From Thermoplasmatota archaeon (lineage in GTDB: Archaea; Thermoplasmatota; JAKEGO01): a stretch of 64,000 nucleotides of DNA. The notes below the pieces were generated by a model. The model did no database searches. It was not told the DNA's origin and saw only the letters and a program-made list of their open reading frames with translations. Shown here piece by piece: positions 8,389 through 55,500 of this stretch (position 1 is the first letter of the stretch; the number at the start of each line of letters is the position of its first letter). Where the stretch lies: NCBI GenBank assembly GCA_028279595.1, contig JANQNK010000006.1, positions 128,001 to 192,000 on the forward strand, given 5' to 3'. Both the position numbers and the translations under genes were made by a program.

Positions 8389-11025
8389 TCACTTCATGCT
8401 CTCGAGCTCGTCGAGTATGGGCTGGATGTGATGGGTGTCGCCCCTCTCCTTGAAGATCTTCTTCGCCTTGTTGAAGAACGTCTTCGCCTGCTTGTCCTGC
8501 CCCATGTCCCTGTGGACGCGGCCTATGAGGAATAGCTTCTCGGCTATCCTTATCGGGGCGTTCCCCTTCTCCGCAAGCTCGAGGCTCTTGTTGAGGTACT
8601 CCAATGCATCCTCGTGATTCCCCTTGCTGGCATGGACGATCCCGTAGGCCATGTTGAGGTGTCCCATGAGAATGTGGTCCATGTCCGATCCGTGGATCCT
8701 CTCGGCCTCCTGGAGCCTCTCCAGGGCGTCGTCGTGCTTCTCCATCTCCGCAAGCGCCCTTACGGAGTTCATCAATGCGAACCCGAGGAGTTCGTGGGAA
8801 CCGCTCCTGCGTCCGGATTCGACGGCCATCTCCCAGTAGTGGTGGGCCTTCTCGATGTCCCCCTTGGAGAAATGGCACTCGCCCATGAGGTCGTAGACAC
8901 GACCGAGCTTGAAGACGTCCTTTCTCCCCTCGAAGAAGTCCAGGCTGACCTTCGCCAGTTCGAGGGCCTTGTCCATGTCGCCCATCGAGATGTAGATGGA
9001 CCCCATGTCGATCAGAAGGTCGTGATACTCGATGTCATGGGTCCCTTCCACGGCGTACTGGATCGCGAGTTCGAGGAGCTCCTTGGCCTTGCCGTGCTCC
9101 CCCTTGTGGATGAACAGCCTGGCAATTGCGCCGTTGACCATGGCCAACAGCCCCTTGTCCTTGGACTGGTTCGCCATGTCGAGAGCGATCTGAAGGTTGT
9201 TGTTGGCGTCGTCGACGTTCCCGAGGCTGAGTTCGAGCAACCCGAGCTGTCTGAATGCATGCGAGCGGGCCACGAAGTTCGTCGTGGATGACGAGTTCAG
9301 CGCCTTGTCGTAGTACTCCCTGGCGTTCTCGTGATCGGTCTCGAGGAAGTACATGTCCCCCTGGAGAATGTATATCTTGTAGAACTGGTCGGTCGGGATA
9401 TTGCCCTCGAGGTCCGTCAGTATGCTCTTGACCTCCGCGATGAGGCCGCGGTTCAGGGACTCGTTCCCGACCTTTCCGAGGATCTCGCTGGCGTCGTCGT
9501 AGTACTCGCCCTTGAGCAGATACCTTATCCCCTTCAGCGAGTCGAAGACCGTCTCCTTGCCGATGAAGTAGTCCGCTGCGTTCTTGCAGTGTTCCTTTAT
9601 CTCGGCCTCGGAGAGCCTAGAGTAGGTCACCTCGCGAAGGAGGTTCTGGAGATAGATCATGCCCGACGGCAGGTCCTGGATCAGGTGGAGGTCGATGAGG
9701 CGGTCGAGCGCCTCCATTGGTGGGTCGATGTAGAGCAGAGCGTCGATCTCGTTGGGATATGTGAGGACCGACGCGTAGTTGAGCAGTTTCCTCTCCTCCT
9801 CCTCGAGGCCGGAAAGCAGTTCGTCCTGGACGAACCGGTAAAGGTCGCTGGGCTTTTTCACGTCGTCGGGGTTCCTTATCAGTTCGAGGGACAGGGGATG
9901 CCCGCCCGTGATCTTGTAAAGGATATCGATGTTCGGTCCGGAGAACCCGCGCGAGCTGAGCATCTCCTCGGTGCCCTCGAAGCTCAGTCCCGACAGCTTC
10001 AGCTCCCCCACGTGGGAACGTATGTTGACGTCCCTCCTGTCGTAGAACTCGGGGGTTGTCCTGGATACGACGACCATCTTGAGGTCCTTGCCCGAAAGGG
10101 CCTCGAACATCTGTCCGAAGAAGCCGGCAAGCTCATCGTTCGCCTTCTCGTAGTTGTCGAAGACGAAGAGCGATGGCACGTCGCCGAGGTTCTCGCCGAT
10201 GAGTTCGATCGCCTCGTTGGTCTGGAACGATGACCTCGAGATCATCTTCTTGAGCTCCCTTGAAGCGTTTAGCGAGAAGAACTCGGCAAGCCTCGAAAGG
10301 ATGCTCCTGATGGTGTCCCATTCCGTGACGTTGCACCACAGTACGCTGTAGTCGCTGGTGAACTCGTCGATTACCTTGGCCAATAGAGTGGACTTCCCGA
10401 TCCCGGTTATCCCCGTGATGACGAGGACCTTCCTCTCGGATATGATCTTCCTCACGGACTCGAGTTCGCGGTCTCGTCCGATGAAGTTGCGTGGCTTTGG
10501 GGCATCGCTCAGCATGTGGACGCGCGTTGACATCTCCTTGTCCTCGGAGATGAACTTCTCGAGAGCCTCCATCTGAACGACATCCTTCCCGTCGTTCGCT
10601 ACCACAAGGACGGTCAATGGGGAGACACCGCCTCCCAGTCTCTCTACGAGGGTGAAAATGGGGACGTCCTCGACCTCGTCGCCGGTCCTTATCTTGATCT
10701 CCACGGCTTCGAGCTTCTCCTTGATGTCCTTCGCCTCGTCGATACCCTTCATGGTGAGGAAATAGATGTTGACCCGTCTCATGTGGCCTTCGACCATTCC
10801 CGTACGGACCTGAATGAGTTCGTCGTTGACGAGTCCCTTGAGCGAACGGGGGACGTGGTTCCAACGGATGCCCACGGCGTCCGCTATGCCCTTCTGGGAC
10901 AGGTCGTGGGGAAGAACTCCGAATATCTCGGTCTGCGACTCGTCTGAGACGTACCTTTCCGCAGGAAACTCGGAAAGATGGAGCAGTATCTTCTCCTTTA
11001 CCGTAAGCAAGCTCTTCTCCGTCAT
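8389..11025 (-). CDS. STAND-class NTPase: N-terminal winged HTH, NB-ARC-like domain and TPR repeats
   Basis: FIGRDREL, Walker A GITGIGKS, Walker B LFVFDNYE, GGHPL and ~8 TPR-like repeats. Confidence 0.9.
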   Translation of the reverse strand: MTEKSLLTVKEKILLHLSEFPAERYVSDESQTEIFGVLPHDLSQKGIADAVGIRWNHVPRSLKGLVNDELIQVRTGMVEGHMRRVNIYFLTMKGIDEAKDIKEKLEAVEIKIRTGDEVEDVPIFTLVERLGGGVSPLTVLVVANDGKDVVQMEALEKFISEDKEMSTRVHMLSDAPKPRNFIGRDRELESVRKIISERKVLVITGITGIGKSTLLAKVIDEFTSDYSVLWCNVTEWDTIRSILSRLAEFFSLNASRELKKMISRSSFQTNEAIELIGENLGDVPSLFVFDNYEKANDELAGFFGQMFEALSGKDLKMVVVSRTTPEFYDRRDVNIRSHVGELKLSGLSFEGTEEMLSSRGFSGPNIDILYKITGGHPLSLELIRNPDDVKKPSDLYRFVQDELLSGLEEEERKLLNYASVLTYPNEIDALLYIDPPMEALDRLIDLHLIQDLPSGMIYLQNLLREVTYSRLSEAEIKEHCKNAADYFIGKETVFDSLKGIRYLLKGEYYDDASEILGKVGNESLNRGLIAEVKSILTDLEGNIPTDQFYKIYILQGDMYFLETDHENAREYYDKALNSSSTTNFVARSHAFRQLGLLELSLGNVDDANNNLQIALDMANQSKDKGLLAMVNGAIARLFIHKGEHGKAKELLELAIQYAVEGTHDIEYHDLLIDMGSIYISMGDMDKALELAKVSLDFFEGRKDVFKLGRVYDLMGECHFSKGDIEKAHHYWEMAVESGRRSGSHELLGFALMNSVRALAEMEKHDDALERLQEAERIHGSDMDHILMGHLNMAYGIVHASKGNHEDALEYLNKSLELAEKGNAPIRIAEKLFLIGRVHRDMGQDKQAKTFFNKAKKIFKERGDTHHIQPILDELESMK

Positions 11026-11143: not shown

Positions 11144-11881
11144 TCAATCAAGGGGCCTGTACTTGACGGTCGGTGTACCGTCTGTCTTCTCATTGCCGTC
11201 GAGGGGAATGACCACGGCCTCCTGGGCCTGTTCCTCGAACGGGACCTGCTCTGCCTGTATGACGTTCTGGTCCGCTCCCGGGGGATGTACGACCGGGCCG
11301 CCGGCCTGATATTCTTCCGCCGGACGGTCCTCCCTCGGTGGTTCGTTGCCCGGTTGCGATTCCATGAATGTGGGGGAATGGCCTTGCTGCTGGGGCTGCG
11401 GGGAAACAACTGCCGGCTGCGGCTGCTGGACCGCCTGCTGGGGCGGTTGCGGTGCGACCTGCTGTTGTGGCGCCGGCGGTCGGGGCTGCTGGGTCGGTGC
11501 AGGCTGAACCGGCTGGGGTGGTTGTGGGGTCCCCCTCCTAAGTTCGAGCGCCTCCGCCTTCAATCCCTCGACCTGTATCTTCAATTCGTCGATGTTGTCG
11601 TGGAGATTGGCGATGATCTCGACGTCCCGGACGTGCCTGTCCTTGAGCCGGGCGATCTCCTCGTCACGCTCCCTGATCTGCTTGGTGATGACCTCCTGTT
11701 GGGCGCCCGCCTTGGCAGCATCGATCCCGCCTCCAGTCCTGAGCCTCTCTATCTCGGCCTCCTTGGCTGCCAGTATGTCCTTGAGCTTCGCCAGTTGAGA
11801 ATGGATATCAGGACGCTTCGGCGGTCCAGCGCTCTTCTCGGTGAGCGAGCGCATCTCCTCTTCTTCAACGATCCTGATCAT
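11144..11881 (-). CDS. Coiled-coil protein with a Pro/Gln-rich tail; last gene of the coiled-coil operon
   Basis: GGTGA SD; starts MIRIVEEEE; heptad-rich E/K/L segments followed by PQ low complexity. Confidence 0.8.
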   Translation of the reverse strand: MIRIVEEEEMRSLTEKSAGPPKRPDIHSQLAKLKDILAAKEAEIERLRTGGGIDAAKAGAQQEVITKQIRERDEEIARLKDRHVRDVEIIANLHDNIDELKIQVEGLKAEALELRRGTPQPPQPVQPAPTQQPRPPAPQQQVAPQPPQQAVQQPQPAVVSPQPQQQGHSPTFMESQPGNEPPREDRPAEEYQAGGPVVHPPGADQNVIQAEQVPFEEQAQEAVVIPLDGNEKTDGTPTVKYRPLD

Positions 11882-11894
11882 GTCCTGATCACCG

Positions 11895-12713
11895 TCAGAC
11901 CTTTCCGGCGCCCCTGCAGTTGGGACATACCTCTTGGACGATGCTTCCGTCCTTCTTCCTAACGCCGATGACACCCTCTCCTCCGCAGACGGGGCAGATG
12001 GCCTGTTCCCCGATGTCCTCGGGTATGGGTATCGTCTCGGGTACCTCGGCGACCTCCGCCGGGATCGGAGCCTCCTCCTGCGGTTCTGGGGCGGCTTCCG
12101 CGCCCTTTACCGTTTCCACCGTCTGGGCCTTCTCATCCTGTTGCTTGGCACCCAGGATAGATCCTGATCCTTCGGGCTTTCCACCGAGGAGTCTACCGCG
12201 CGACTCGGGTTGTGCCGGTGCAGCCTCCTCGACCGGAGCGAAGACCGGGGTCGGTCCCGCCTGGGGCTTCTTCATCGTGTCGCTCATCTGATGGAGCTCT
12301 CCGGTAAGATCGGATATCCGCTGTTCGAGCTCCTCCTTGTAAGCTGTGGTCTTGTCGAGGATCTCCTTGTCGAGCTCGATCTTCTTGTCCCTCTCCGTGA
12401 TCAGTGCTTTGAGGTCCTGTATCTCGCCCTTGAGCGTCTCCAGGATGCCAGGGTCGGTCTCTGCGGCCGGTGGGCCGTCCTTGGGAGCTGGAGCCTTGGC
12501 CTTCTCCTGCTCGAGCGCGGCCTTCGTCGCGTCGAGCTCCTCCTGGAGCTTGGTGTTCTCGTCCTTCATCGTCTTGAGCTCCTGGATCGCCTTGTTGAGC
12601 TTCTCCTTGAGGTTCTCTACGATGTCGGTGATCTGCTTCTTGAGCTTGAGTTGCTCAGACGTCTTCTCCTGCTTCGACCGCTCCATCTCGTCCTCGGTGA
12701 TCATCCTGACCAT
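11895..12713 (-). CDS. Coiled-coil protein with a C-terminal DnaJ-type zinc finger
   Basis: Starts MVRMITEDE after a GGAGGG SD; ends CPVCGGEG...CPNCRGAGKV. Confidence 0.85.
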   Translation of the reverse strand: MVRMITEDEMERSKQEKTSEQLKLKKQITDIVENLKEKLNKAIQELKTMKDENTKLQEELDATKAALEQEKAKAPAPKDGPPAAETDPGILETLKGEIQDLKALITERDKKIELDKEILDKTTAYKEELEQRISDLTGELHQMSDTMKKPQAGPTPVFAPVEEAAPAQPESRGRLLGGKPEGSGSILGAKQQDEKAQTVETVKGAEAAPEPQEEAPIPAEVAEVPETIPIPEDIGEQAICPVCGGEGVIGVRKKDGSIVQEVCPNCRGAGKV

Positions 12714-12726
12714 TCCGACCCTCCAT

Positions 12727-13521
12727 TCATGTTCTCCCAGTTCCACCGCACCGCGGACATGAGACCTCCTTCTCGGCGTCCCCGTCCTGCACGATCACCT
12801 TCTTTCTCCCCTTGCAGAGGTCGCAGCGTTTCGACCTTCCAGCCAGGGGAGGCGCTAGGTTCAGCACTATTGTGTCGTTAGTGCCACTTTCCTTATTTAA
12901 ACTTTCCAACTGCTGCTTGGCCTTCCTGAGCTCTGCTACGATAGCGCTGGACTTCGTCTTGAGCTCATCGTATCTCGCAGTGTGCTTCTGACCATCCTTC
13001 CTGAGCTTCTCGTTCTCGACAGTCAGGTGCTTGATCCTCTCGATCGCAGCGGGGTCGGGCCCCGATTGGGTTGCCGTCGATGGCGACGCCCTCAACGACT
13101 CGACCTCCGCGAGCAGGTCCCGTCTGATCTGCTCGTACTGGGACTTGATGCCCTCGAACGAACGTATCTGCTGGTCCCTGTCGGTTATCATACGCTTGAG
13201 GATGTCGATCTCCTTCTCTTTCTCGGCGACGCTCTTCGTGATCGCCTGTATCCTCTTCTGCATCTCCCCTACCTTCTGCCTGAAGGATTCGGGTATCTCG
13301 CTCTGCGCCTTGGCCTGACGGATCCTCGTGACCGCCCATTTGAGCTCGTTCTGAAGCGTCTCCTTGGCCGCCGCGCTCTCCTCGAGGTCGGTCCTGAGCG
13401 AATTGATCTGATTGGTCAATGTATCGATGGTCCGAAGATGGATCTCCTCCTCCGCCTTGCCCTTGGCAATGAGCTGCTTGAGACTCTCGACCTGGGCTTT
13501 AAGCGGATCGGACCCTGTCAA
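12727..13521 (-). CDS. Coiled-coil protein with a C-terminal DnaJ-type zinc finger; TTG start
   Basis: TTGA overlap with the upstream stop; ends CDLCKGRK...CPRCGGTGRT. Confidence 0.83.
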   Translation of the reverse strand: MTGSDPLKAQVESLKQLIAKGKAEEEIHLRTIDTLTNQINSLRTDLEESAAAKETLQNELKWAVTRIRQAKAQSEIPESFRQKVGEMQKRIQAITKSVAEKEKEIDILKRMITDRDQQIRSFEGIKSQYEQIRRDLLAEVESLRASPSTATQSGPDPAAIERIKHLTVENEKLRKDGQKHTARYDELKTKSSAIVAELRKAKQQLESLNKESGTNDTIVLNLAPPLAGRSKRCDLCKGRKKVIVQDGDAEKEVSCPRCGGTGRT

Positions 13522-14975
13522 ACTATACCAGCTCCGTCACACCTAGGACACGTCTCCTCCCTGACGTGGCCGTGCCTGTCCTTGACCCCGACCTTCCCGA
13601 GGCCACCGCATACCGGACAGACCTTGCCCAATGTGTCGCTCACCGGCACCTCGGCCGGCGGAGGGGGCGGTGCGGCCGCCTTGGCCGGAGGTGCCGCCTG
13701 TGCCTCTGCCGGCGCTGCGGGAGGCGGTGGTGCCGCGGCCTTGGTCTCCAGCCTCTCGTTGAGCCTCTGTACGGCGGTCTCGAGGGCAGTGTTCCTTCCG
13801 TTAGCCTCGTCGAGCTCCTTCCTGGTCTTCTCGAGCTCGGCGTTGAGTCCGTCCCTCTCGGCCATGATCATCTTGACGTCGCCGCTCTCCGCGGCGATCT
13901 TCGCGTTCTCTGCCTCCAGGTCCGCGATCCTCTTGTTGAGGCCCTCCCGTTCGGTCTTCCAGGAGGCTTCCTTCTCGGTGAGGGTAGCCTTGACGGCCTC
14001 CATCTGCTCCGACTCTCCGGCCTTGTCGCCCTGGAGCTTGACGTATTCCTGCTTGACGGCCGCGATGGTGTCCTTGACCTCCGTGAGGTCCTTCTTCAGC
14101 TTGGCGTTCTCCTCCTTGAGCTTGACGACCTCAGCGGAACCGGCCTTCTCGAGTTCAGCGATCCTCATGTCCCGCATCTGCACCTCCTTGTTGAGGCGCT
14201 CGATCTCGCGGGTAAGGCCCTGTACCTTGTCCGTGGAACCCGAGCTCTGCTTGACGATCTTGGCGTTCTCGGCCGTGAGCCTCTCGACCTCCCGGGTCAG
14301 GGCGTCCGCCTTCTCCTTGACTGCGGCCGAATCCTTCTGGACCTTCTCGTTCTCGGCGGCGGATATCTCCGCGGCCTCCTTCATGGATGCCAGCGAGGCC
14401 TCGGCGGTCTCGATCCTCTTCGTGAGCTCCGCCCTCTCCTTCTCGACGACCCCGATCGCGGTCTTCATCTCCTCGATCTCGTCGTTCTTCGTCCTCAGGG
14501 AGGTCGTGACCTTCTCCAGCCTCTCCTTGTCAGCGGTCCTGTCCTTGTCGGCCTTCTCGAGGGCCTTCCTGGCGGCCTCGAGACCGGCCAGCGCCTTCTT
14601 CGCTTCCTCGAGCTCGGCAGCTGCCTTTCCTGCCTTCTCGAGGTCCTTCTGGAGCTGATCGTTGGTGGCCTTGAGCCCCTTCAGGGTCTCCTTGGCCGCA
14701 CCGACCGTCTTCTTCATCTCCTCCCTCTCCTTGTCGAGGGAGTCCACCTGTTTCGTAAGGTCTGCGATCCGCTTCTCGGAGGCTGCGGTATCCTTCTTGG
14801 CCGCATCGGCGTCGGCGGTCATCTGTTCCACGACCACTTTTAGGCGCGATATCTCACGCGCCCTTTCCTCGATCTTCCTCTCTGATTCGGATATCCTCTC
14901 CTTCAGTTGGAGGTTCTCAGACTTCTTCTCCTCGTCGAAAAGGTCCTTCTCGTCCTCGGATATCACCTTGATCAT
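13518..14975 (-). CDS. Long coiled-coil protein (~400 aa helical) with a Pro/Ala linker and a C-terminal DnaJ-type zinc finger
   Basis: Starts MIKVISEDE (ATGA overlap); no NTPase motifs; ends CPVCGGLG...CPRCDGAGIV. Confidence 0.87.
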   Translation of the reverse strand: MIKVISEDEKDLFDEEKKSENLQLKERISESERKIEERAREISRLKVVVEQMTADADAAKKDTAASEKRIADLTKQVDSLDKEREEMKKTVGAAKETLKGLKATNDQLQKDLEKAGKAAAELEEAKKALAGLEAARKALEKADKDRTADKERLEKVTTSLRTKNDEIEEMKTAIGVVEKERAELTKRIETAEASLASMKEAAEISAAENEKVQKDSAAVKEKADALTREVERLTAENAKIVKQSSGSTDKVQGLTREIERLNKEVQMRDMRIAELEKAGSAEVVKLKEENAKLKKDLTEVKDTIAAVKQEYVKLQGDKAGESEQMEAVKATLTEKEASWKTEREGLNKRIADLEAENAKIAAESGDVKMIMAERDGLNAELEKTRKELDEANGRNTALETAVQRLNERLETKAAAPPPPAAPAEAQAAPPAKAAAPPPPPAEVPVSDTLGKVCPVCGGLGKVGVKDRHGHVREETCPRCDGAGIV

Positions 14976-16123
14976 ATCTTACCCGCTCCTTTGCATCTCG
15001 GACACATCTGTTCGTTCAGTTTTCCGCGTTTGCCCCTCACCATCACGCGTCCCTTGCCCGAGCAAACCGGACAATCCTTCTTCCCCTTCTTCGAGCGCTT
15101 TCCACCCTTCTTCTTGACGGGCTTCCTGGGGGAACTATCCACCTTTGGAGGTCCCGGAGGTTGTACGTCGGGTTCCTCGGGCTCTTCTTCCTCGGCACCC
15201 TCGAGTATCCCCTTGACGTTGACCTCGTTGTGACACCATGGACAGATGGCCTTTTGAACCTTCCTGTCCACGATGAACGTACCGTGGCAGTAGGGGCACT
15301 CCACCTCGGTATCGCTCCTCGTCCTGCGTTCTGGATTGAGAGTGAACTCCACGGTCCTGGACGCATACGGCGGTATGTTCACATACGCCTCCGACGGCAC
15401 CGGAATGAACCCTTCCGGGGAGAATGGTTCTATGTGCAACGTCTCGAGGGACCGTTCCGACTCGTTCCTTATCTTGATCCGATAGACCAGGCCCTCACCC
15501 TTCTCGGTCAGGACCGTCGATATCGAGGCGTCCCTGCCCGGGACGAACTCCTCGGCGGTGTACGCATCGGTGTTCATCGGATTGAGCTCGAATATCCTCG
15601 CCTCTTCGCCGAAGGGCTTGAGGCTGATGACCTCGCTCTGCGGGGTCGGGACGAATATCGAGTTGGATGTGTCCGGAATGATGTTGATCCGGTTCAGGGG
15701 CTGCCCGAGGTTGTTTCGAACGAGGACCTTGTAGAGGATCCTGTTCTCGACCCGGGCGAAGACCGTCTTGATAGTGAGCTCGCGTCCGGGCTTCGGCTTG
15801 ACCATGGTCGCTGCCACGGCGCGTTCCGCCAGGGAGATGCACTCCTCGAACTGGTTCTCCTTGAGGGCGCGCTTGGCCTTCGTCAACAGGTCCTTCGCGC
15901 TGTTGACATCGATGCGTGCGTCCTGTGCCTTCAGGATCGAGCGTTCGGCGAATTCGACGGCACCCTTGGCGCTGTGCGCCATGCTCAGCTGTTCACGGAC
16001 CATGTTCTCGGCCTTCTCGGAGAGTCCCCGTGCCCTTTTCGGCTTTTCCTGGTCAAGGGCCAGTCTCGCCTTAGCGAGGACCTCCTCAGCCTCCGAGGTG
16101 TCGATATCGATCCTTTCGTCCAT
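14972..16123 (-). CDS. Multidomain protein: helical N-terminus, two tandem beta-sandwich repeats, zinc ribbon, basic linker and DnaJ-type zinc finger
   Basis: Internal repeat PGR...Y[KR]..[VI]RN.....L....I.P...F.P.P...F.LNP (x2); CPYC..CPWC; ends CPVCSGKG...CPRCKGAGKI. Confidence 0.85.
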   Translation of the reverse strand: MDERIDIDTSEAEEVLAKARLALDQEKPKRARGLSEKAENMVREQLSMAHSAKGAVEFAERSILKAQDARIDVNSAKDLLTKAKRALKENQFEECISLAERAVAATMVKPKPGRELTIKTVFARVENRILYKVLVRNNLGQPLNRINIIPDTSNSIFVPTPQSEVISLKPFGEEARIFELNPMNTDAYTAEEFVPGRDASISTVLTEKGEGLVYRIKIRNESERSLETLHIEPFSPEGFIPVPSEAYVNIPPYASRTVEFTLNPERRTRSDTEVECPYCHGTFIVDRKVQKAICPWCHNEVNVKGILEGAEEEEPEEPDVQPPGPPKVDSSPRKPVKKKGGKRSKKGKKDCPVCSGKGRVMVRGKRGKLNEQMCPRCKGAGKI

Positions 16124-16124
16124 G

Positions 16125-19100
16125 TTACTCCTCCCCCTCTTTTACCGATTCTATGAACGCCTTGGCATGCATGTAGGCGCCCTTTGCCGTCTCCAGCATG
16201 GAGACGATGATGTATACGGCTATAAGACCGAGTATGAGTGCGATGAGCGGATAGATGAAGGTCGGGAACGGCAGCAGGTCAGGAGTGAGGAAAAGGCCTT
16301 CGAGCATGGTGCCGATCGATCTCCCCGAGGATAGGCTCAGGAAGAATATGCCGAACATCAGGCCGCATATGGCGAGCGTGCTGATGTATGACTTCGTTCT
16401 GATCCCGGTGATGATGGTGTAGAGCGGGACTATCATCACGAGCATTATGTACGCGAGCGGAAGGGCAGCCGCGTCGATCGCCGCGCTCTCGACCGGCAGG
16501 AGGACGAACAAGGAGATCGCCGTCGTCACGACCAGACCCTTGATGAGGTGCTCGTTCCGCCGCTGTTTGAGGCTCACGCGCTTCGCGTTCGCCCTTAGCA
16601 TCGCGAAACCACCGAGAAGTATGATCGGCAGTGCGATGAGGACGATCGGGTTGGGGCGTTTGCTGACCTTTATCTCCGTAGAAACGACGTTGTTCCTCCG
16701 CCGTCCCGGGTCACTCCCCTCATAGCCTTCGCTGGCCGCCTTGATCGTCAACGTGTGTCGCTCCGAACGGTTGAACCAGTCGAGCTCCGGGATCTCGATC
16801 TCGATTGCGAGGGTCCTCTCCCCCTCCATGGGAAGGTCGATCTGGACCTCGTGGATGAGGTCTCCGTCCCAGTAGACCTCGATCGGCAGGTTCGAGAGGG
16901 TGTCGATGACCGGGTCCCCCGTCTCCCTGCCGGTGGACCTAACGGTGAACGTTACGGTGAGCTCGTCCCCCTCCTGTGCGATGTCATCGATGTCCACGTC
17001 CGAGATGGATATGTCTGGCGAGAGCGTGATTATCAGGAAGTTGAGCTCCTCGGGCGTCGGCAGTGCGTCGACCCAGACGTTCACGGTGAAGTCGAGTTCG
17101 GAGAAATGGGGTATCGAGGGTGCGGAATGTATCGTCGCATAGATGATCCGGTCCTGACCGGGAGCCAGCAGGAAACTGGAGTTGTCGAGCTCGATCTCCC
17201 AACCGGAATAGAAGGTCGTGGAGTTGAGCGTGAACGTCCGCTGTACGGGGAACTCGTTCCTGATGAGGATGCCGTAGTCGATCTCGGAATCCGGGAATAT
17301 GTAGACGAACGGAGGTCCGTAGGGCATGACGAACGAGGTCTCGACCTCGATGCGTACGTCGTCGTATCCCGGACCCTCGACCACCGAACCGGACACGTCT
17401 ACGTAGTTGATCGGGTCGTTGAGGGAGTTGGACGGCGGCCTGATCGTAACGTAGACCGTAGTGCTCTCGTCGAAATCGAGGGTGACCGATGGTCTGTCGA
17501 GCCACACGGTCCAATCGCCGGTCTGAGAGACGTCGAGTGTGACGTTCTCTCGGCCGTTGCCGGTGTTTATTACGTAGACAGGGACGATCAGAGGTTCGTT
17601 GGGTATTACCTTCCACACGTCGCTCCCGCCCCAGATGTCCAGGTCCCGTGTCTGGAGGTCGACACCCGTGACGAGGTCGACGATGACCTTCCCCCATTCG
17701 GAGTCGGACACCTTGCTGTCGTGCTTCGATGTGAGGTTCAGGATGATGGTATCGCTGCTGTCCGCGATGAGTCCGTACGGGATGTACACCCTGATCTGGA
17801 GTATTCGGGTCTCTCCGGGATCGACGAGGTCCAGGGCCTCGGGATTGATCATGTCGGTCTCCCAATCTGAGGTCGACACGATGTCCTCGTTGTAATTGTC
17901 TATCCCGTTCCCAGTATTGTTGAATGTGAAGTTGAGGACAGTCTCCCCTCCAGGGGGCCCCCTCGCCGTCATCACAGGGCGTATCTCGACCCCTCCGACC
18001 TGGGTCAGCGATATCGTGCATGTGGAAAAGTCGCTCTTGGTCGGGTCCGCAGTGGAGTTGACCTCGACGACGATGATGTAGACCTCGTCCTCGAGCGCGT
18101 CCTCCGGTATCTGTACCCTCAGGGTGATCGTCGTTGTCAGACCTGCTAGCACCGAACCGGTGATATCCCCCGGTAACAGGGAGATCGAAAGGCTCTGATT
18201 GTTCACTGTCCTCAGGCCGAAGGAGTCCTCGCCATTGCCCGTGTTGGTCACGATGAGCTCCATATCGACAGTGTCGCCCGGTTCCGCGGTGGTAGCGTTC
18301 TCCTCGGGTTCGATGGTAACGGAATAGCCCTGAAGGACGTTTATGTACGAGAAGGCGCTATCGCTCGTGGTCCCATCACCACAGGTGGCGGTGAGGACAA
18401 GGGTCTCGTTCGTTCCGACGGGAGTTCCTGGATTGATGGTGACGTTCACGATGATATCCACATTCTCGTCGTATTCGAGGTTCACCAGCGGCTGTGAATC
18501 GACGACGAAGGTCAGATTGGTCGATCCGTCGATCGAGAACGAGTCCATGTCGTTCCCCTGGTTGCGGATGTTGAACGTGAACTGGACAGCTTCCATCGGT
18601 TCCCCGGACTGGATAACTGGATCGATCGCGGTGACCTCGACACCGTAGACCTGGGGGATCATCGCCACGAGGTCGACCACCCGGTACTTCGAGCTGTCGG
18701 CGTCGGACTCGGCCCGGACAGTGATGTGGGCCCGCCTGTTGTCCGGCCTGTCCCTCGATTCCATCGTAATCGTTATTATCTCAGATTCGCCATTATCAAG
18801 TGTAATGCCGTCCGGAGGTGCTCCATTCTCAACATTTACCAGCCAGTTTGGGGGCGCTGTTGAGTTGGTAATGTAGAACGTGTCAGTACTCTCGTAGTTC
18901 GCCACGTTGGTCACGTTGACGAGGAATACCGCGGTCTCTCCTATCCCGATCTCGACGGGAGATTCGCTGATGAGCCTGATGTCGACGTCATTGGATTCGG
19001 AGACGTCGATGGAGGCCTGGGATGACGCGTCGACGTAGATGTCATAGTCGGATGTCACCTGGATACGCAGCGTTGCGGTGGTGTCGGCGGCTATGACGTT

Positions 19101-19736
19101 GTTCCACTCGGATCGCGGCACGATGACGTCCACGCTGACGGAGATGGAGTCACCCATGTCGAGGTCCTCTATCTTGTCGTCGAACGTGACGTTCCAGACC
19201 CTGTACTGGGTGTCGATGCAAAGGGCCTCGACTGTGAAGTTGTCCATGGCATTCCCGGTGTTCCACACGGTGAAGTTGATGGTGATGGTCTCGCCGGGAT
19301 CGCCGAAGAACGTGCCTGGAGTGTTGATAGCTACTCCGGCCACGGGAAAGACCCTGGTCGTGGCCTGGGCCGTGTCGGTGGCGCTCGACGCCTGGGATAT
19401 AGCCTGGAGGGTGACGTAGTCGACGGTGTTGGCCTGTGTCCCTGCCGGGATGGAGACGATGACCTCGATATCTTCCTCGATCTGGCCGGATGATAGTGTG
19501 ATGTTCGATGGCTGGACCACAGTCCAACCCCGGGAGGAGTTCGCCACGAGATCGTAGGAATCGGTTTGGCTACCAGTGTTCTCCACATCGAAGTGATGGG
19601 TGATGTTCGCGCCTGGAAATCCCCATCCGCCACCTCCATCCGGTCCCCGTACATCGACGTCGTACTGCGCCGCCCCGGGACCGCAGAGGAACAGTGCGAA
19701 GAAAACGACGCACAAGAACAACCAATGCAGCCTCAT
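16125..19736 (-). CDS. Cell-surface protein, 1203 aa: signal peptide, ~8 Ig-like (NEW3/COG1470-type) repeats, CARDB-like domain and ~5 C-terminal TM helices
   Basis: Repeated N[TQ]GN..D.[FY] motifs, many N-x-S/T sequons and a hydrophobic C-terminal bundle; its stop is 1 nt from the next start. Confidence 0.85.
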
Positions 19737-19935
19737 ACCTTCACCTTTTCGCGATACGCCTGGACTCCAAGTTATTCAATTCTGTCTATATATAGTTTGT
19801 TTGGTGGTATTTTCCGCGTTCCGTGACAAATCGAGAATCACCAGCGTCCGGTGGTTTCCGTGGTTTATTGGTCACGTTCGTATCCCAATCACTATCTTTT
19901 TATCCGGCCGGGGCCTTCTGCGGAACGGTGATCCA

Positions 19936-22794: not shown

Positions 22795-23907
22795 CTAGTC
22801 GATCTTCTCTACCCACGGATCACCGTGATAGTACTCGATGTTCATCTCGATCCGATACAGGTTGCCAGGATCGAGAATGACCGCATCCGTGATGAGACCT
22901 ATGGTTATGTTGTAGTTGCTGCTCCACTTCATGTTGGTCATGTTCTTGTCGGCCGCGAAATCTTGAGCGTCAGCAATTGATGGTGCCCAGAAGTTGAGTG
23001 TCGGATAGGCCCTGTCCCACATGAATGAGAGTGTCCCCTCCTGACCGGTGACGGTATGATCTATCTGGTCGAACGGATTGTCCACTCCGAGCGTGAACTG
23101 GTCAGGCTGGGAGAGAAGGATCTCATCGTCAGTCCAACTGAGATTTACCCATACCTGGGTCACGTTGGTATTAAGAACGATATTGTTGTACTCGTCGGTG
23201 CCGTTGTCCTCGAGGTATATCTCCGTGTTCTCGATCTCCTCGTAACCGGTGTTGTTCCAGGTCGCCTTGAACCGCTGCATGGTCACGACGACGTTCTGTG
23301 ATACCGTGGTCGTGGCCTCGTCCGTGTCCTCCACGGTCAGGTTGACCTTGTAGGTCCCATTGGCGAGGAACGTATGTGTCACATCCGGTCCGGTCGCTGT
23401 ACTCCCGTCGCCGAACTCCCACTCGGTCGATGCCGGAAGGATCGCACCATCGTTGTCGTACGAGCTCGATGAATCGAAGAATAGTTGCTCGCCGACCCAC
23501 GCCTCGTTGGTCGGGACGCCGCCCCCGTCCTTTATCGACATGTTCGCCACTGGAGGCTCGTTGATCTTGATTGTCCCGGTGGTCGCTGTGCCTACCGCAC
23601 CGTCGTCATCCCAGACGACGAGGGTTATCGTGATCTCACCGGGTTCTGTATAGACATGTGTGTCGAACCCAGTGTCAAGGACGCCGCTGTTGTCGCCGTC
23701 GCCGTACCAGAACATGTACTGGACGATCTTGCCGTCGGAATCCTCGGAATCCGTTCCCTCGATGGTAACGGTGTCACCGAGATTGAAGGTTGACTGTCCC
23801 ACGTATATCTTCGCCGTAGGGTTCTTGTTCTTCTCCTCCGAATCCTCCTCCAGACACCCTGCGGAAAGGACCAGCATCACAACGATGAGAGCGATGTGCA
23901 CCTTCAT
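22795..23907 (-). CDS. PKD-domain lipoprotein
   Basis: LSAGC lipobox; two PKD domains (S.D.DG.I, W.[YF]GDG, H.[YF]...G.[YI].[VI].L.V.D). Confidence 0.85.
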   Translation of the reverse strand: MKVHIALIVVMLVLSAGCLEEDSEEKNKNPTAKIYVGQSTFNLGDTVTIEGTDSEDSDGKIVQYMFWYGDGDNSGVLDTGFDTHVYTEPGEITITLVVWDDDGAVGTATTGTIKINEPPVANMSIKDGGGVPTNEAWVGEQLFFDSSSSYDNDGAILPASTEWEFGDGSTATGPDVTHTFLANGTYKVNLTVEDTDEATTTVSQNVVVTMQRFKATWNNTGYEEIENTEIYLEDNGTDEYNNIVLNTNVTQVWVNLSWTDDEILLSQPDQFTLGVDNPFDQIDHTVTGQEGTLSFMWDRAYPTLNFWAPSIADAQDFAADKNMTNMKWSSNYNITIGLITDAVILDPGNLYRIEMNIEYYHGDPWVEKID

Positions 23908-24025
23908 GACTCCAACCTCACTGCGAACATTCATCAATTCCTTATAAATAGTTTGCTTGAAGCACGTTACCGTTCCAGTACCGGTGGCTTGGGTCGAGTT
24001 CAGGATGGTTCGCCCTGTTCCAGTC

Positions 24026-25522
24026 TCATTCGTAACCCGGCGGATTGACGTTCTCGTTCCAGTAGTGGTGTGGATGGGTCAGCTTCTGGGCCTCGGTAAG
24101 GTCGGAGGCCATTCCCTCCTTGAAGGAACCATACCTTACGCGTATCTGCTCCTCGGCCGGTACGCTGATCGTCTTCGCCTTCTCCACGTGGGAGCCGTCG
24201 ATGGTCTCCGATCCCTCGGCGACCGCTATGTCTCCAGCGCAGCGGACCAGTCCTCCGAGGTCCCGGAGTCTGAGCGTGATCGCCTTGGGGGCGTTGTCTA
24301 TCCGCCTCGCCCTTGTGATCGACTCCACGATGATACCGTCGATGGCGGTCCTATCCGCGTGGGGGATCCTTCCGTCCTGGTGGACCTCCTGGGCAATGAA
24401 CTGCGCGATGGAACTCCGGTTCGACGGGTTGTCCTCCATCGTTGTATCGAGCACCACCTCGTATCCCGAGCCCAGTATCCTCGACCTCAATGGGGAAAGG
24501 ATCGCTGGAAGGTCGTTCACGTTGCATGCGGCGACGAGTATGAAATCGCAGGGGACGTCCTCGACCCTCACCGAGGCTCCCGAGCTCTGCGGGTTCCTTC
24601 CGGATATCGGGAAGTTCCTGTCCTGCATCGCCGTCAATATGTACCTCTGCAGTCCGCCGAGATGTGGCACCTCGTCGATGAAGAGGACGCCTTCGTGGGC
24701 CTCGTGGATCGCGCCAGCTACGACCCTGTCGTATGCCGGTGTCCCGATGTTAGGATGACCGCCGTATGGATCGTGCCTGACGTCTCCGAGCAGCTCGGTC
24801 TCGCTCGCACCTGTGGCCATGATGAAGGTCCGCCTTTCTATGGGCATCAATACCTTTCGAGGTCGTGCCATGTCCTGTTCGCGCCTCTCGCTGAGGGCCT
24901 TCTCGTCGAGGACCATGACCATGTCGCCGGCGAGTTCGTAGACAACGACCTCCTCGGTGCCGTCAGCCTTTGTCCTGGTGGTACGCACTTGCCCGGCCTT
25001 GCCGGCCATCTGCCCTATGGAGATCTCCAGGAAGCCCACGAGGTCCTGGAAAGGATTGTCCGACTTGGGCTGCCTCGCCTTCGGTGCTCCGCAGTTGTTG
25101 CAGATCATCTCGGAGGCGTCGGAGTACGATTCGCATCTGGAACAGAATATCCCGAGCTTCTCGGCCGCGTGGAGGGGTACCTCCTGGGGCTTGACGAGCT
25201 TGCCGGTACCAGCGGCAAGGCGTTCCTCCCGCTGTGCGACCTCCTCCCGGGTGAGCGTCTCGATGAAGGGTCTTTCTGGATTCGCCGGATTGTGTACGAC
25301 CTGGACCTCGTGGTCCGGGTGCGGAAGGTCGAAGGAGATGGCCTGTGCTATCATCGATTTACCGATGCCAGGCGGTCCGACGAGGAGAAGGTGCCGCCTC
25401 TGGTGTGCGGCCCTCCGGGCCAGCTTGACGGCGTGGTCCTGACCGATGACCCTCGATAGGGGGTCCCGCGGGATCTCTATCTCCGAGGTGTTCTCCCACT
25501 CGAGGGTATCGGATCCTTCCAT
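24026..25522 (-). CDS. LonB-related AAA+ ATPase lacking the protease domain, with a zinc-ribbon insert
   Basis: VIGQDHA, GPPGIGKS, LLGDVRHDPYGG, GAIHEAHEGVLFIDE and LRLRDLGGL motifs; no Ser-Lys protease domain follows. Confidence 0.9.
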   Translation of the reverse strand: MEGSDTLEWENTSEIEIPRDPLSRVIGQDHAVKLARRAAHQRRHLLLVGPPGIGKSMIAQAISFDLPHPDHEVQVVHNPANPERPFIETLTREEVAQREERLAAGTGKLVKPQEVPLHAAEKLGIFCSRCESYSDASEMICNNCGAPKARQPKSDNPFQDLVGFLEISIGQMAGKAGQVRTTRTKADGTEEVVVYELAGDMVMVLDEKALSERREQDMARPRKVLMPIERRTFIMATGASETELLGDVRHDPYGGHPNIGTPAYDRVVAGAIHEAHEGVLFIDEVPHLGGLQRYILTAMQDRNFPISGRNPQSSGASVRVEDVPCDFILVAACNVNDLPAILSPLRSRILGSGYEVVLDTTMEDNPSNRSSIAQFIAQEVHQDGRIPHADRTAIDGIIVESITRARRIDNAPKAITLRLRDLGGLVRCAGDIAVAEGSETIDGSHVEKAKTISVPAEEQIRVRYGSFKEGMASDLTEAQKLTHPHHYWNENVNPPGYE

Positions 25523-26821
25523 CTACTCCAGGTCCTCCTTCGTCAGTATCCTCACGGATGAGGGGACCTTGATGACGTTCCCGACCTTCACGCCGATGAG
25601 GTTCTTCACGTCCTTCTCCGCGCTGATGTCGAGAAGCCTCTGGGAGATTATTCCGTCGAAGACGACGGAGTCGACCTCCTTGTTGCTCTCCTTGAGCTTG
25701 TCAGCGAGGTCCTTGACCAGCACTTCCTTTATGACCTTGGTGTTGTTGTCGAAGAAGACCGCCTTCTGCTTCCCCGCAAGCCTCTCGAGGGTATCCTTGA
25801 ACTTCTCCTGTTCCTTCGACAGGGTCGGTTCGGGCTGTGCGGGTTCCTGGGGCGGCTCCTCCACTATGGGCGGCTGTTCCTGAGGCTTGTTCTGGCCCCT
25901 GTTCTGGTTCTTTCCGCCCTTGTCCTTTCCCTTGCCGCGTCCGGAGTCCTTTCCACCCTTGCCATTCTTGCCCTGACCGTTCTCGTCACCCAATCCGAAG
26001 ATCGAGATGTACTGGTCGACGGGCATCTTGTTCCTGACGGATTTCATCATCTGTTTGAGTGTCAGTTCCTCGACCTCCGTGTTCGGAGGTGCCCTGGCGA
26101 TGAAGTCGACCTCGGCGCGCTGAAGAAGCTCCCGTATGATGAGCTCTCCGCCGCGGTCGCCGTCAACGAACACGGTCACGACGCGTTCCTTCGAAAGGTC
26201 GATGACGGTCTTGGGTATGTTCGTTCCCTCGACGGCTATAGCGTTCTTGATGCCGTACTTGAGTAGGTTGATCACATCGGAGCGTCCCTCGACGACGATG
26301 ATGTCGTCGGACGTCTCGAGTGTGGGTCCCGCAGGGCACTTGTCGTCGCCGTAGATGACGATCTCTTCCATCTGCACGGCCTGCCTGACCGTCTGCGTGA
26401 TGTCGAGACCCGCTGTCTTCGACTTTTCTAGGATCTCTCCTAGGAGGTCCTTCGCCCTGTCGACGATCTGCCTCTTCTTCTGCGCCCGGACATCATCGAT
26501 CTCCTTGATGCCGATGTGGGCCTTGCACGGTCCGACGCGCTCGATCGTCTCGAGAGCGGACGCGAGTATGGCGGTCTCCACCTGGTCCAGGCTGGACGGC
26601 AGAATTATGGACCCCTCCGACTTCCCCTTCTTTGATGAGATGTCAACCTCTATCCGGCCGATGCGGCCGGTCTTCTGAAGTTCGCGCAGGTCGAGCTCCT
26701 CTCCAAGGAGCCCCTCTGTCTGTCCGAAGATCGCACCGACGACATCGGGTTTCTCCACCACGCCGTCGGTCGAAATTGTTGCTGTTATCACGTATTTTGT
26801 CGTATTCGGGTCGATGTTCAT
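25523..26821 (-). CDS. dnaG: Archaeal DnaG (primase-like, exosome-associated)
   Basis: GVVEKPDVVGAIFGQTEGLLG, TOPRIM VVEGRSDV...DGDRGG and FDGIISQRLLD motifs. Confidence 0.97.
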   Translation of the reverse strand: MNIDPNTTKYVITATISTDGVVEKPDVVGAIFGQTEGLLGEELDLRELQKTGRIGRIEVDISSKKGKSEGSIILPSSLDQVETAILASALETIERVGPCKAHIGIKEIDDVRAQKKRQIVDRAKDLLGEILEKSKTAGLDITQTVRQAVQMEEIVIYGDDKCPAGPTLETSDDIIVVEGRSDVINLLKYGIKNAIAVEGTNIPKTVIDLSKERVVTVFVDGDRGGELIIRELLQRAEVDFIARAPPNTEVEELTLKQMMKSVRNKMPVDQYISIFGLGDENGQGKNGKGGKDSGRGKGKDKGGKNQNRGQNKPQEQPPIVEEPPQEPAQPEPTLSKEQEKFKDTLERLAGKQKAVFFDNNTKVIKEVLVKDLADKLKESNKEVDSVVFDGIISQRLLDISAEKDVKNLIGVKVGNVIKVPSSVRILTKEDLE

Positions 26822-52540: not shown

Positions 52541-55500
52541 TCACTCTATCGTGAACTCGTCCTCGCAACTCGGACACTTGATGTCCACCGGTCTCTCCTT
52601 CGGAATTATCAGGTTGTGTCCGCACGTCGGGCATGGAGCCACCATGATCTTCCCTATGTCCATGACCTCGGTCTCGATGGCCTTCGGTGCCTCAGGCTCG
52701 GGCTTCTTGATCGGGGCCATACCTGGAACCGTGGGTAGTTCAAGGCGTGGCGGCGGTGTGGCTGGCACCTCGGGAAACGCTTCGACCGGCGCTGCGGCCT
52801 CGGCCGGAGCTGCTTCGGCAGGTGCTGCTGCTACCGCGACTGCGGGTGGTTCCTCACCCTCTGAGAAGGCTGGTGGTCCCTCGAACTCGACCACGGCCTC
52901 GTAGACCTCCGCCTCGATGACGTCTACAGGTGCTGTCGGGGAGATCTCCTTCGCCATCTCCTCGGCCCTCTTCTTCTTCCTCTGTCTGGACATGCCAAGG
53001 AGAAGGACGACCACCACGACGGCGATCACAATTCCGGCGACGATCATGATCGGGAACTCCGATTCATCGTCGCCCTCTTCGACGTAGATCGTCGTTTCCA
53101 CGGAACTGATCTCCTCGAAGGTGTTCCCGTAAGCCTTCACCACGATATCGTGCTCTCCCTTAGGGAGCTTCGTCCTGACATAGAAGGTCATGCCGTCGAT
53201 TGACGTCCCGTTCTGCCAGGACATCTCGTATCGCGTTTCGTCCACGAAGAGGTAGACCTCCGTTGGGAAGACGTTGGGCAACTCGTAGGTGAATATAACG
53301 GTAAAGGTGATCGTGTCGTCCTCGGTCGGGAAGTCGGGACTGTAGGTGAGCGAGCTGAGCTCGGGTGGCTCGGATATCGGTATGAAGACGCCGAAAGTCG
53401 ACAGGTCCTCGAGGTCCGCTGTAATCGTACGGTCCTCGGTGTCCGTCTCGGTGTCGTCTATCGGCATCCACGCGGCGCCCACGAGGTGATAGATCTTCGC
53501 ATCCTCGATGCCGTTGGTGTCATCGAGAGATGATGGATAGGTTATCTCCATCCTTACGTCACGATACTCGCCCGCTCCGTACGGGACTACCTCCACGTAT
53601 GCGTCGAGCGAGATCACTCCTGTCGGGATGTCGTCATCGTAGAAGCCGTCGCCTCCGAGTATGATCCTGTTTCCGACCCACGTGAGCTTGATACTGAATC
53701 CTCCCGATATCGAGAATTCGTTCGTCCTCTCCAAGAGGGTGGGTGTACCGGACATGGTCACGATGGGCCCGAGGTTCCCCTCGTCGTCGATAGCCCTCAC
53801 CGCAAAGAAGTATGTTCCGTTGTCGGGGAGGACGACATGTATCCATTCGTTCTCTCCGGGCTCCTTCGGGACAAGGTCGTTCGTCACGTTGGTGGCGATG
53901 TCCCAGCGTCCCTCGCTCGTGATGTCCTCGTTGTCGTAGCGAATCAGATATGCGGTAGCGCGTCCCTCGTCACCGTCGTCTCCCGGGGCGGTCCACGTGA
54001 GGTTCAGGGTGTCTCCGAAACCAACGTCCTCCGCGAGTGGACTGCCGATGCCGTCGGGTTCGATGACGTCGCCGATGGTGATCGGTCCGTCGCTGTATAT
54101 GAAGACCTCGTTCTCGACGTCCTTCAGCTTGAACATGATGTAGTAGGACCCCTTGTCGACGCCGTCGGTGTCCCACTTGAACTCCGTCCTCGATTCCGTG
54201 AGAGCGGTCTCGGTGATCTCCTCGAACCCGCCGTTCGACCTTTCATCGTCCGTATCGTAGAATATGCGGACCTCGACCTCGTCACCGTCCTCGTCTGACA
54301 CGTTGAAGTAGATCGTGAACTCGTCGCCCGGGTCGATCATGTCGTCGACGCCGTCGGGCTGGTCGATCTCGACGGTCGGGGGAACGTTCGGGGATCCCTC
54401 GCGGATCGGAAGGACGTACTCGGCATAGACCTTCGTCGGGTCCTCGTTCACACCATCCTCGATGGTCGCATACAACCAGTAATCGCCTTCCGGTATGTCG
54501 GTGACGTCCCATTGATAGTCGTCCTTAGGCTGTCCGTTGTCATCCAGGGTGTCCTCGTAGAACACGCCGTCGTGGAGCTTGGTACCGTCGAAGTCCTCGT
54601 CGTCATCGTCGTAGTATATCCTGATCGTGGCATTGTTGTCGGGATCGTCATCCTCCCACTGGATGAAGAACCACGACTGCTCCCCCTTCCAGACGGTATC
54701 GTCCACACCATCAGGGTTCGTGAAGCTGATGAGCGGTGGAACGTTCTTCCACACCGTGACGTTGACGAGGTATTCGGGAGATACTCCGTCGCGCCTGTCG
54801 GTCGAGTTCGCCTGGAGCGTGTAGTTGCCCGGCTCCTCGTCCCGCGTGTCCCACGAAACGGTCCAGTTCCATCTGTTCCACGCGACCTTCTGCACCGGAA
54901 CGAACAGAGTGTGCTGGTTCTGGACCTCGCCGTCCTCGATCCAGAACACGGTCAGGTCCACGGAGTCCAGCTCGTCGTCCGGGTCTATCGTGTAACCGGT
55001 CACGTCGACCTCACCGCTGAGGCGATCGGATTCCTCGGGGAAGGTGATGAACGTCCGCGGTAGCGTATTGACGTTGTCGATCGATACGTTCCGACTGAGG
55101 ACCTCCGAGATGTTCCCTCCGTCGTACGACATCGCATGTATGGTGTAGTTGCCGTCCTCGATCTCCGTCGTGTCCCATTCGAACTCCCAGAACCAGTATG
55201 GGTCCTTCGATCCGGATGTATCCTCGGCGTCCTGCCAGTCGCTTCCCTCGGGCTCCACTCCCCGTTCGGTGATCGCAACGTAGACGTCCGTCACGTTCCC
55301 GTCGTGGTCGGGATCCCTCGCAGTGCCGTTGATGGTTATGATGCCGACGAGCTCGTCGTCCTTCTTCGGCTCCTTTATCGAAACAGTGGGGTCATCGGGA
55401 TTGTCAAGTGATACGTTGATGGTGACCGCCCTCGTCAGGTTCTCTCCGTCCCGAGCACGGGCATAGATATCGTAGACGCCATCATCGGTCCTGTTCGGTG

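Follow-up and report, generated by a model that had tools for sequence, protein, structure and literature searches.

A predicted six-gene operon on a 64,000-nucleotide stretch of DNA from a Thermoplasmatota archaeon (GenBank assembly GCA_028279595.1, contig JANQNK010000006.1, positions 128,001 to 192,000 of the forward strand; hereafter the window) appears, from gene order and phylogeny, to be a detached variant of a recurrent, uncharacterised archaellum-associated module, to which zinc-capped rods have been added. Its products may form a cytoplasmic scaffold anchored in the membrane and descended from this lineage-specific archaellum accessory module, a tentative reading with somewhat less than an even chance of being right. 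The operon spans positions 11144 to 19736 of the window and comprises the following genes, with lengths in amino acids (aa):

g1, 16125-19736, minus strand: 1203 aa; exported, probably glycosylated surface protein with immunoglobulin (Ig)-like repeats
g2, 14972-16123, minus strand: 383 aa; predicted cytoplasmic adaptor
g3, 13518-14975, minus strand: 485 aa; coiled coil and terminal zinc hairpin
g4, 12727-13521, minus strand: 264 aa, TTG start; predicted three-helix bundle and terminal zinc hairpin
g5, 11895-12713, minus strand: 272 aa; paralogue of g3, coiled coil and terminal zinc hairpin
g6, 11144-11881, minus strand: 245 aa; short coiled coil and Pro/Gln-rich tail, without a finger

The starts of g5 and g6 were set by alignment of orthologues and not by the longest open reading frame (ORF), which begins too far upstream; both were placed at the methionine of the N-terminal head described below because orthologues in four other lineages all start there. 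With these starts, the six minus-strand genes are separated by gaps of 1, -4, -4, 13 and 13 nucleotides (nt), as stated in an initial annotation made from the DNA letters.

Archaellum-linked homologues of g1 and g2

The evidence for an archaellum link comes from the relatives of the first two genes among 301 sampled genomes, whose assignment to the phylum Thermoplasmatota rests on Atlas labels. Strong full-length matches to g2 were found in families f9, f16 (23 of its 24 genomes), f18, f35, f44 and f45, six families other than that of the window, with profile E values of 1e-72 to 1e-114. Outside the taxonomic order of the window, g2 lacks the finger and has different neighbours. An archaellin gene follows g2 directly in 25 of the 26 loci fetched from the six families, the exception lying at a contig edge, and in most of these loci a g1-type foot directly precedes g2. 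Three loci of 17 to 20 kb (L017, L018 and L021) present the order g1-g2-arlB-arlC/DE-arlF/G-arlH-arlI-arlJ, the first part of which is also seen in L016; the Pfam matches in L017 are archaellin, FlaC together with FlaD/E, KaiC-like ArlH, ArlI and ArlJ. Since full-length matches to g2 are limited to a minority of families and archaellin is found in 171 of the 301 genomes, the g1-g2 pair is an accessory of some lineages and not a core part of the motor.

The pair in the window resembles the pairs at the head of archaellum operons in its Ig repeats, in its five-helix membrane foot with a conserved terminal helix, and in its tight coupling, and in both settings g2 consists of a helical module followed by two beta-sandwiches. 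It differs in not lying beside arlB, in the finger added to g2, and in the four extra helical proteins encoded after it. The initial annotation had recognised this architecture from no described archaeal system. The published literature that was searched bears this out, although the first two genes turn out to belong to the recurrent archaellum-head module. In the motility operon of Marine Group II, the pair figures as conserved genes without annotation (Tully 2019, PMC6336850), and surveys covering type IV filament loci of archaea name no such parts (PMC4858521, PMC13705601).

The genome that contains the window (G000) does not carry the operon beside its arl genes. Its arl operon is complete, lies on contig C4 and consists of arlB, an ArlC/DE fusion, two ArlF/G-like genes, arlH, arlI and arlJ; upstream of arlB there is a divergent beta-lactamase-fold gene and not g1-g2. 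In G002, from the only other family of the same taxonomic order in the genome set, the arl operon is likewise on another contig, and a NifU-like gene, not g1-g2, precedes arlB. Because G000 retains its own ArlC/DE fusion (PF05377 and PF04659), g2-g6 are additions and not replacements. In a maximum-likelihood tree of 32 g2 proteins, the five with a finger group together as one clade (support 100/99), whose sister is an arl-linked protein from f18 (100/99), with the remaining arl-linked proteins on the other side. The arl-linked state would thus be ancestral, unless the root falls inside the finger clade. In that case the pair was detached, the finger gained and g3-g6 acquired one time each.

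Within this order of archaea the arrangement is conserved. The six genes, with the finger at the same four positions, recur in the second family (G002, L015), where each finger gene resembles its positional counterpart and the N-terminal head is found on the same three genes. All six genes are also present in a close relative, L057. The first three or four are found on short metagenome contigs (L054, L055), and the first genes on G001 as well. Conserved synteny around g1, which the initial annotation had proposed as a check, is seen as a six-gene order in G002 and L057, and the coupling of g1 to g2 extends wider still.

Composition of the g1-g2 pair and the rod-like proteins

The g1 protein begins with a hydrophobic, signal-like N terminus (residues 1-25), followed by approximately 1000 residues of Ig-like repeats (26-1027) and by a membrane foot of about five transmembrane (TM) helices at 1029-1186, in agreement with the exported Ig-repeat protein with some five TM helices of the initial annotation. 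It contains 20 N-x-S/T sequons. The repeats match Ig_VWA7 (8.7e-19), FixG_C (1e-14) and CARDB in Pfam and the 'choice-of-anchor T' family in NCBIfam (7.9e-47). The C terminus is a 20-residue amphipathic helix predicted to be cytoplasmic, and a topology with the N terminus outside and the C terminus inside is predicted because a basic loop follows the first TM helix. The foot and terminal helix can be aligned over 23 homologues from several families, and tblastn finds 24-34% identity over 500-1250 residues with L015, L004 and L016. A phmmer search of g1 against solved structures gave no match.

The AlphaFold2 model of g2 (mean predicted local distance difference test score, pLDDT, of 85) shows a four-helix N-terminal module (residues 10-105) and two beta-sandwiches (116-182 and 199-264). 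These are followed by an inner zinc ribbon, CPxC...CPWC, at residues 271-302, by a Lys-rich linker (314-345) that is disordered in the model, and by the terminal zinc hairpin (nt 14981-15073). The family is small: a set of 1.84 billion proteins contains 55 representatives, and one of 5.8 billion yielded three close relatives. The structural search proposed in the initial annotation retrieved only generic folds for the g2 and g4 models: Foldseek matched the g2 model to tandem Ig folds (transglutaminase barrels, PapD-like chaperones and CEP192) and the g4 model to designed or BAR-like bundles at low TM-score, and the VIA-align fold search returned only generic helical bundles with Z<10.

The helical module of g2 (residues 3-110, approximately 105 residues) also recurs in giant Thermoplasmatota proteins, for example at G000:C7:74738-75058, as an unclassified repeat family with up to 13 matched stretches per protein. 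The module-bearing proteins are about 700-1,900 aa long among the library matches, and open frames reach about 3,200 aa in genome searches. A 3296-aa ORF of the window at 52541-62431 (minus strand) is unrelated to the module by BLASTP.

The remaining four proteins are organised as follows:

g3: head MIKVISEDE, approximately 400 residues of coiled coil, Pro/Ala linker, zinc hairpin at nt 13527-13619
g4: predicted helices 6-71, 78-145 and 157-213, disordered linker, zinc hairpin at nt 12736-12825; head unlike those of g3, g5 and g6
g5: head MVRMITEDE, coiled coil, long acidic/Pro-rich linker, zinc hairpin at nt 11904-11996
g6: head MIRIVEEEE, one short coiled coil, Pro/Gln-rich tail, no finger

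A rough scan for heptad-like sequence gave shares of approximately 70% for g3, 61% for g4, 47% for g5 and 26% for g6, against 3-5% in two control proteins, so the earlier description of g3-g6 as mostly coiled coil holds for g3 and g4, is half true of g5 and fails for g6. The AlphaFold2 model of g4 (pLDDT 79) presents three helices of about 65 residues in one long bundle, estimated from helix length at approximately 10 nm, with the hairpin flexibly tethered. The C-terminal ...KYRPLD of g6 is also found in L057, the one close relative in which g6 was recovered.

No TM segment or signal peptide was found in g2-g6, and searches against the Pfam and NCBIfam libraries gave no J domain, NTPase or catalytic family at E<=0.1, which upholds the initial statements that g3-g6 carry no catalytic or NTPase motif and that a J domain is absent. 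The archaellum families PF01917, PF05377, PF04659, PF06745, PF00437 and PF00482 are without a match in g1-g6, whereas the arl operons of G000 and G019 do contain them. A complex prediction of the g1 foot and the g3 head with g2 as partner scored 0.08 against a mark of 0.32 and was not used as evidence.

The C terminus of all four proteins g2-g5 is a finger of the form CxxCxGx[GK]-x(14-15)-CPxCxGxG-xx-stop, with the motif closing two residues before the stop codon. The four fingers are exactly those quoted in the initial annotation, which nevertheless had summarised the operon as carrying four coiled-coil proteins capped by fingers; the caps are on g2-g5, and g6 has none. When all stop-to-stop frames of at least 60 aa in the 2.29-Mb assembly were scanned, the double motif occurred in six, of which four are the consecutive genes g2-g5 and the other two have the motif in mid-protein, being judged DnaJ-like by motif position alone.

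The finger aligns best with CxxCxGxG motifs 2 and 3 (zinc centre II) of Escherichia coli DnaJ (PDB 1EXK residues 26-61, E=0.003). Matches of the four fingers to PF00684 have E values of 7e-5 to 5e-3 and scores of 23.4, 17.8, 17.6 and 20.8 bits, all below the gathering score of 32.7 bits, and span approximately positions 6-53 or 16-53 of the 65 in the profile. By these alignments, the finger is a half-domain relative of DnaJ_CXXCXGXG (PF00684) and not a full member. It shares with type I DnaJ/Hsp40 proteins two CxxCxGxG motifs flanking a beta-hairpin. Whereas those proteins have four such motifs and two zinc centres, g2-g5 have exactly two motifs and one predicted centre each, lack the G/F region and the C-terminal substrate-binding domain, and give no match to the J domain with its HPD motif (PF00226) at E<=0.1. 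Also unlike in DnaJ, the finger stands at the extreme C terminus of coiled-coil proteins. Anti-TRAP (RtpA) of Bacillus is a similar case of an isolated DnaJ-like CxxCxGxG pair that binds only protein. It is, however, a 53-residue stand-alone regulator from an unrelated context, and its weak matches to the fingers (E>=0.2) are not significant.

The other shared element is the N-terminal head of g3, g5 and g6, M-[IV]-[KR]-[VIM]-I-x with three acidic residues after it. A resemblance of these heads to the N termini of f16 ArlC/DE proteins, where a basic stretch precedes a hydrophobic/acidic strand, was considered and rejected. Profiles did not recover it: the head profile gave no match in five f16 genomes, and in the reverse direction hidden Markov models built on the f16 strand and on the RYEVRIGPP motif failed to bring g3-g6 among the top matches in a six-frame translation of G000. 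The RYEVRIGPP-type motif itself is found at the N terminus of ArlC/DE fusions in L017 (11643-12602), L018, L021, L016 and L024 (6200-7297), and has the form AYDVILGMP in G000. On inspection of their N termini, ArlD/E proteins of 12 families without g2 showed no such motif or head.

Proposed scaffold and alternative explanations

In the proposed arrangement, g1 would lie with its N terminus outside and its C terminus inside, placing the Ig repeats in the cell envelope; g2 would dock onto the cytoplasmic face of the g1 foot, and g3-g6 would hang as rods from this anchor. Zinc centre II of DnaJ binds protein, and for this reason the zinc hairpins, together with the heads, are read as putative docking knobs that would join the rods to the adaptor, to each other or to a further partner. 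The product would be a lattice or tether beneath the membrane, organising or bracing the envelope and most likely linked to the archaellum or the cell pole, and would be a scaffold without enzymatic or NTPase components. The structural role suggested in the initial annotation fits this anatomy of a membrane-anchored, non-enzymatic assembly built from elongated proteins. Of the options listed there, comparison with relatives favours 'appendage base', because in six other families homologues of g1-g2 stand at the front of the archaellum operon.

A possible functional analogy exists with ArlX of Thermoproteota and ArlC/D/E of Euryarchaeota, cytoplasmic scaffold proteins surrounding the archaellum motor, which are likewise non-enzymatic, rich in coiled coil, membrane proximal and tied to the archaellum, although no sequence similarity between them and g2-g6 was detected.

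Several points weigh against an archaellum-derived scaffold. The archaellum link is drawn from gene order in other lineages, and as the operon does not lie beside arl genes here, its present role may have diverged. Full-length matches to g2 are confined to a minority of families, set against the 171 of 301 genomes with archaellin. The grouping with the f18 sister involves long branches and calls for some caution. The three-helix bundle of g4 was predicted for a monomer, with only three sequences as input, and the apparent resemblance of the heads to f16 ArlC/DE, having failed to survive profile searches, was dropped as evidence.

The alternative that survives best, though it is unlikely, is a cell-envelope coat unrelated to motility, in which g1 would be an S-layer-like glycoprotein, g2-g6 a cytoskeleton-like underlay, and the adjacency to arlB a matter of co-expression. 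The great length, abundant sequons and multiple Ig domains of g1 are consistent with such a coat, as is the separation of the operon from arl genes in the window genome. Archaeal S-layer proteins are nonetheless not usually anchored by a five-helix foot that has a cytoplasmic partner of its own. Across six families, 25 of 26 loci keep the order g1-g2-arlB with the genes close together or abutting, which also weighs against this reading, and many families of the phylum, all of which must still have envelopes, gave few matches to g2 or only weak ones. In favour of a coat, S-layer-like proteins do sit in some type IV pilus or archaellum loci without being parts of the machinery (PMC4858521).

A more specific form of the scaffold is speculative and improbable as it stands. 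Cryo-tomography shows a 'polar cap' beneath the archaella of euryarchaea, the proteins of which are, to our knowledge, unidentified. The rods g3-g6 on the g1-g2 anchor could build a sub-membrane plate or cage of such polar cap material, with a docking code of hairpins and heads, read head to tail, setting the order of assembly.

It is also improbable that the proteins are assembly chaperones, with the hairpins acting, in the manner of the DnaJ cysteine-rich domain or of orphan DnaJ-like fingers, as holdases for g1, archaellins or other envelope proteins and the coiled coils as oligomerisation stalks. The alignment of the finger to DnaJ zinc centre II, and its weak one to anti-TRAP, would suit such a role, as would the precedent of HP0958/FlgZ, a bacterial protein needed for formation of the Helicobacter flagellum that, like g3-g5, combines a helical rod with a small zinc module in the context of a motility organelle (PMC4858521). 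That protein, however, is an anti-parallel coiled-coil hairpin with a C-terminal C4 ribbon lacking GxG. Its families appear neither in the Pfam matches at E<=0.1 nor among the Foldseek matches of the g4 model, though a distant relation is possible. Four proteins with position-specific fingers, hundreds of rod residues and shared heads look structural, and they carry no J domain, DnaK-binding part or second zinc centre.

A membrane tether for nucleic acid, positioning a chromosome or plasmid through basic fingers and Lys-rich linkers that bind DNA or RNA, with SMC-like coiled coils as the bridge to a membrane anchor, is very improbable. The linker and finger of g2 are strongly basic, and SMC, Rad50 and an archaea-specific SMC-related protein match g3-g5 below threshold in their coiled-coil arms. 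These matches cover coiled-coil stretches only, the best reaching 60 bits against a cut-off of 300, and there are no ATPase heads, so membership in SMC/Rad50 is ruled out, as the initial annotation had held. Moreover, g3, g5 and g6 carry a net negative charge (-10, -18 and -12), and the fold of the CxxCxGxG hairpin is known for binding protein and not DNA.

A defence or signalling system driven by the STAND NTPase gene downstream of g6, with g1-g6 as sensor or effector, is scarcely credible: the two lie on the same strand, 118 nt apart, and are kept together in L057, but the gap contains A/T-rich, TATA-like boxes of its own, and in G002 the gene after the operon is an unrelated one in a different frame, with no STAND gene on the contig that carries the operon.

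Anchorage of the archaellum in the envelope and its polar organisation are unsettled, especially in Thermoplasmatota, many of them without a regular S-layer (PMC12448462), and the g1-g2 pair, which heads the archaellum operon in many families, had hitherto gone unstudied. Its detachment here suggests that the pair, once freed from arl, recruited rods by way of a small zinc knuckle. Should this knuckle and the heads turn out to be docking elements, they would represent a compact and portable way to build ordered coiled-coil assemblies, and would also serve as handles, through tags and pull-downs, for the partners of the pair in motile relatives.

Promoter region and neighbouring genes

The following features flank the operon:

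TATA-like box, CTATATATAG, 19786-19795, minus strand: approximately 54 nt upstream of the g1 ATG, read directly
GGTGA, 19741-19745, minus strand: ribosome-binding-like site just before the g1 ATG
STAND NTPase (ATPase_2/NB-ARC-like), 8389-11025, minus strand: 878 aa, with an unassigned 180-residue N terminus and a long run of TPR repeats

The space upstream of g1 is the sole intergenic stretch, down to the end of g6, that is large enough for a promoter. A scan for sigma-70 promoters and intrinsic terminators gave nothing above shuffled sequence, a scan that is not meaningful for an archaeon.

Opposite the coiled-coil genes, where the AT skew reaches -0.39, the plus strand contains long antisense ORFs (12982-14658, 13566-14843 and 15161-16156), the largest of 558 aa. 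They arise from the biased codon usage of this region and can mislead gene picking by longest ORF.

Farther upstream, at 24026-26821 (minus strand), a gene for a 498-aa AAA+ protein with Mg-chelatase/Lon-like matches abuts a Toprim (DnaG-like) gene. A protein with two PKD domains is encoded nearby at 22795-23937, and this arrangement is conserved in L056.

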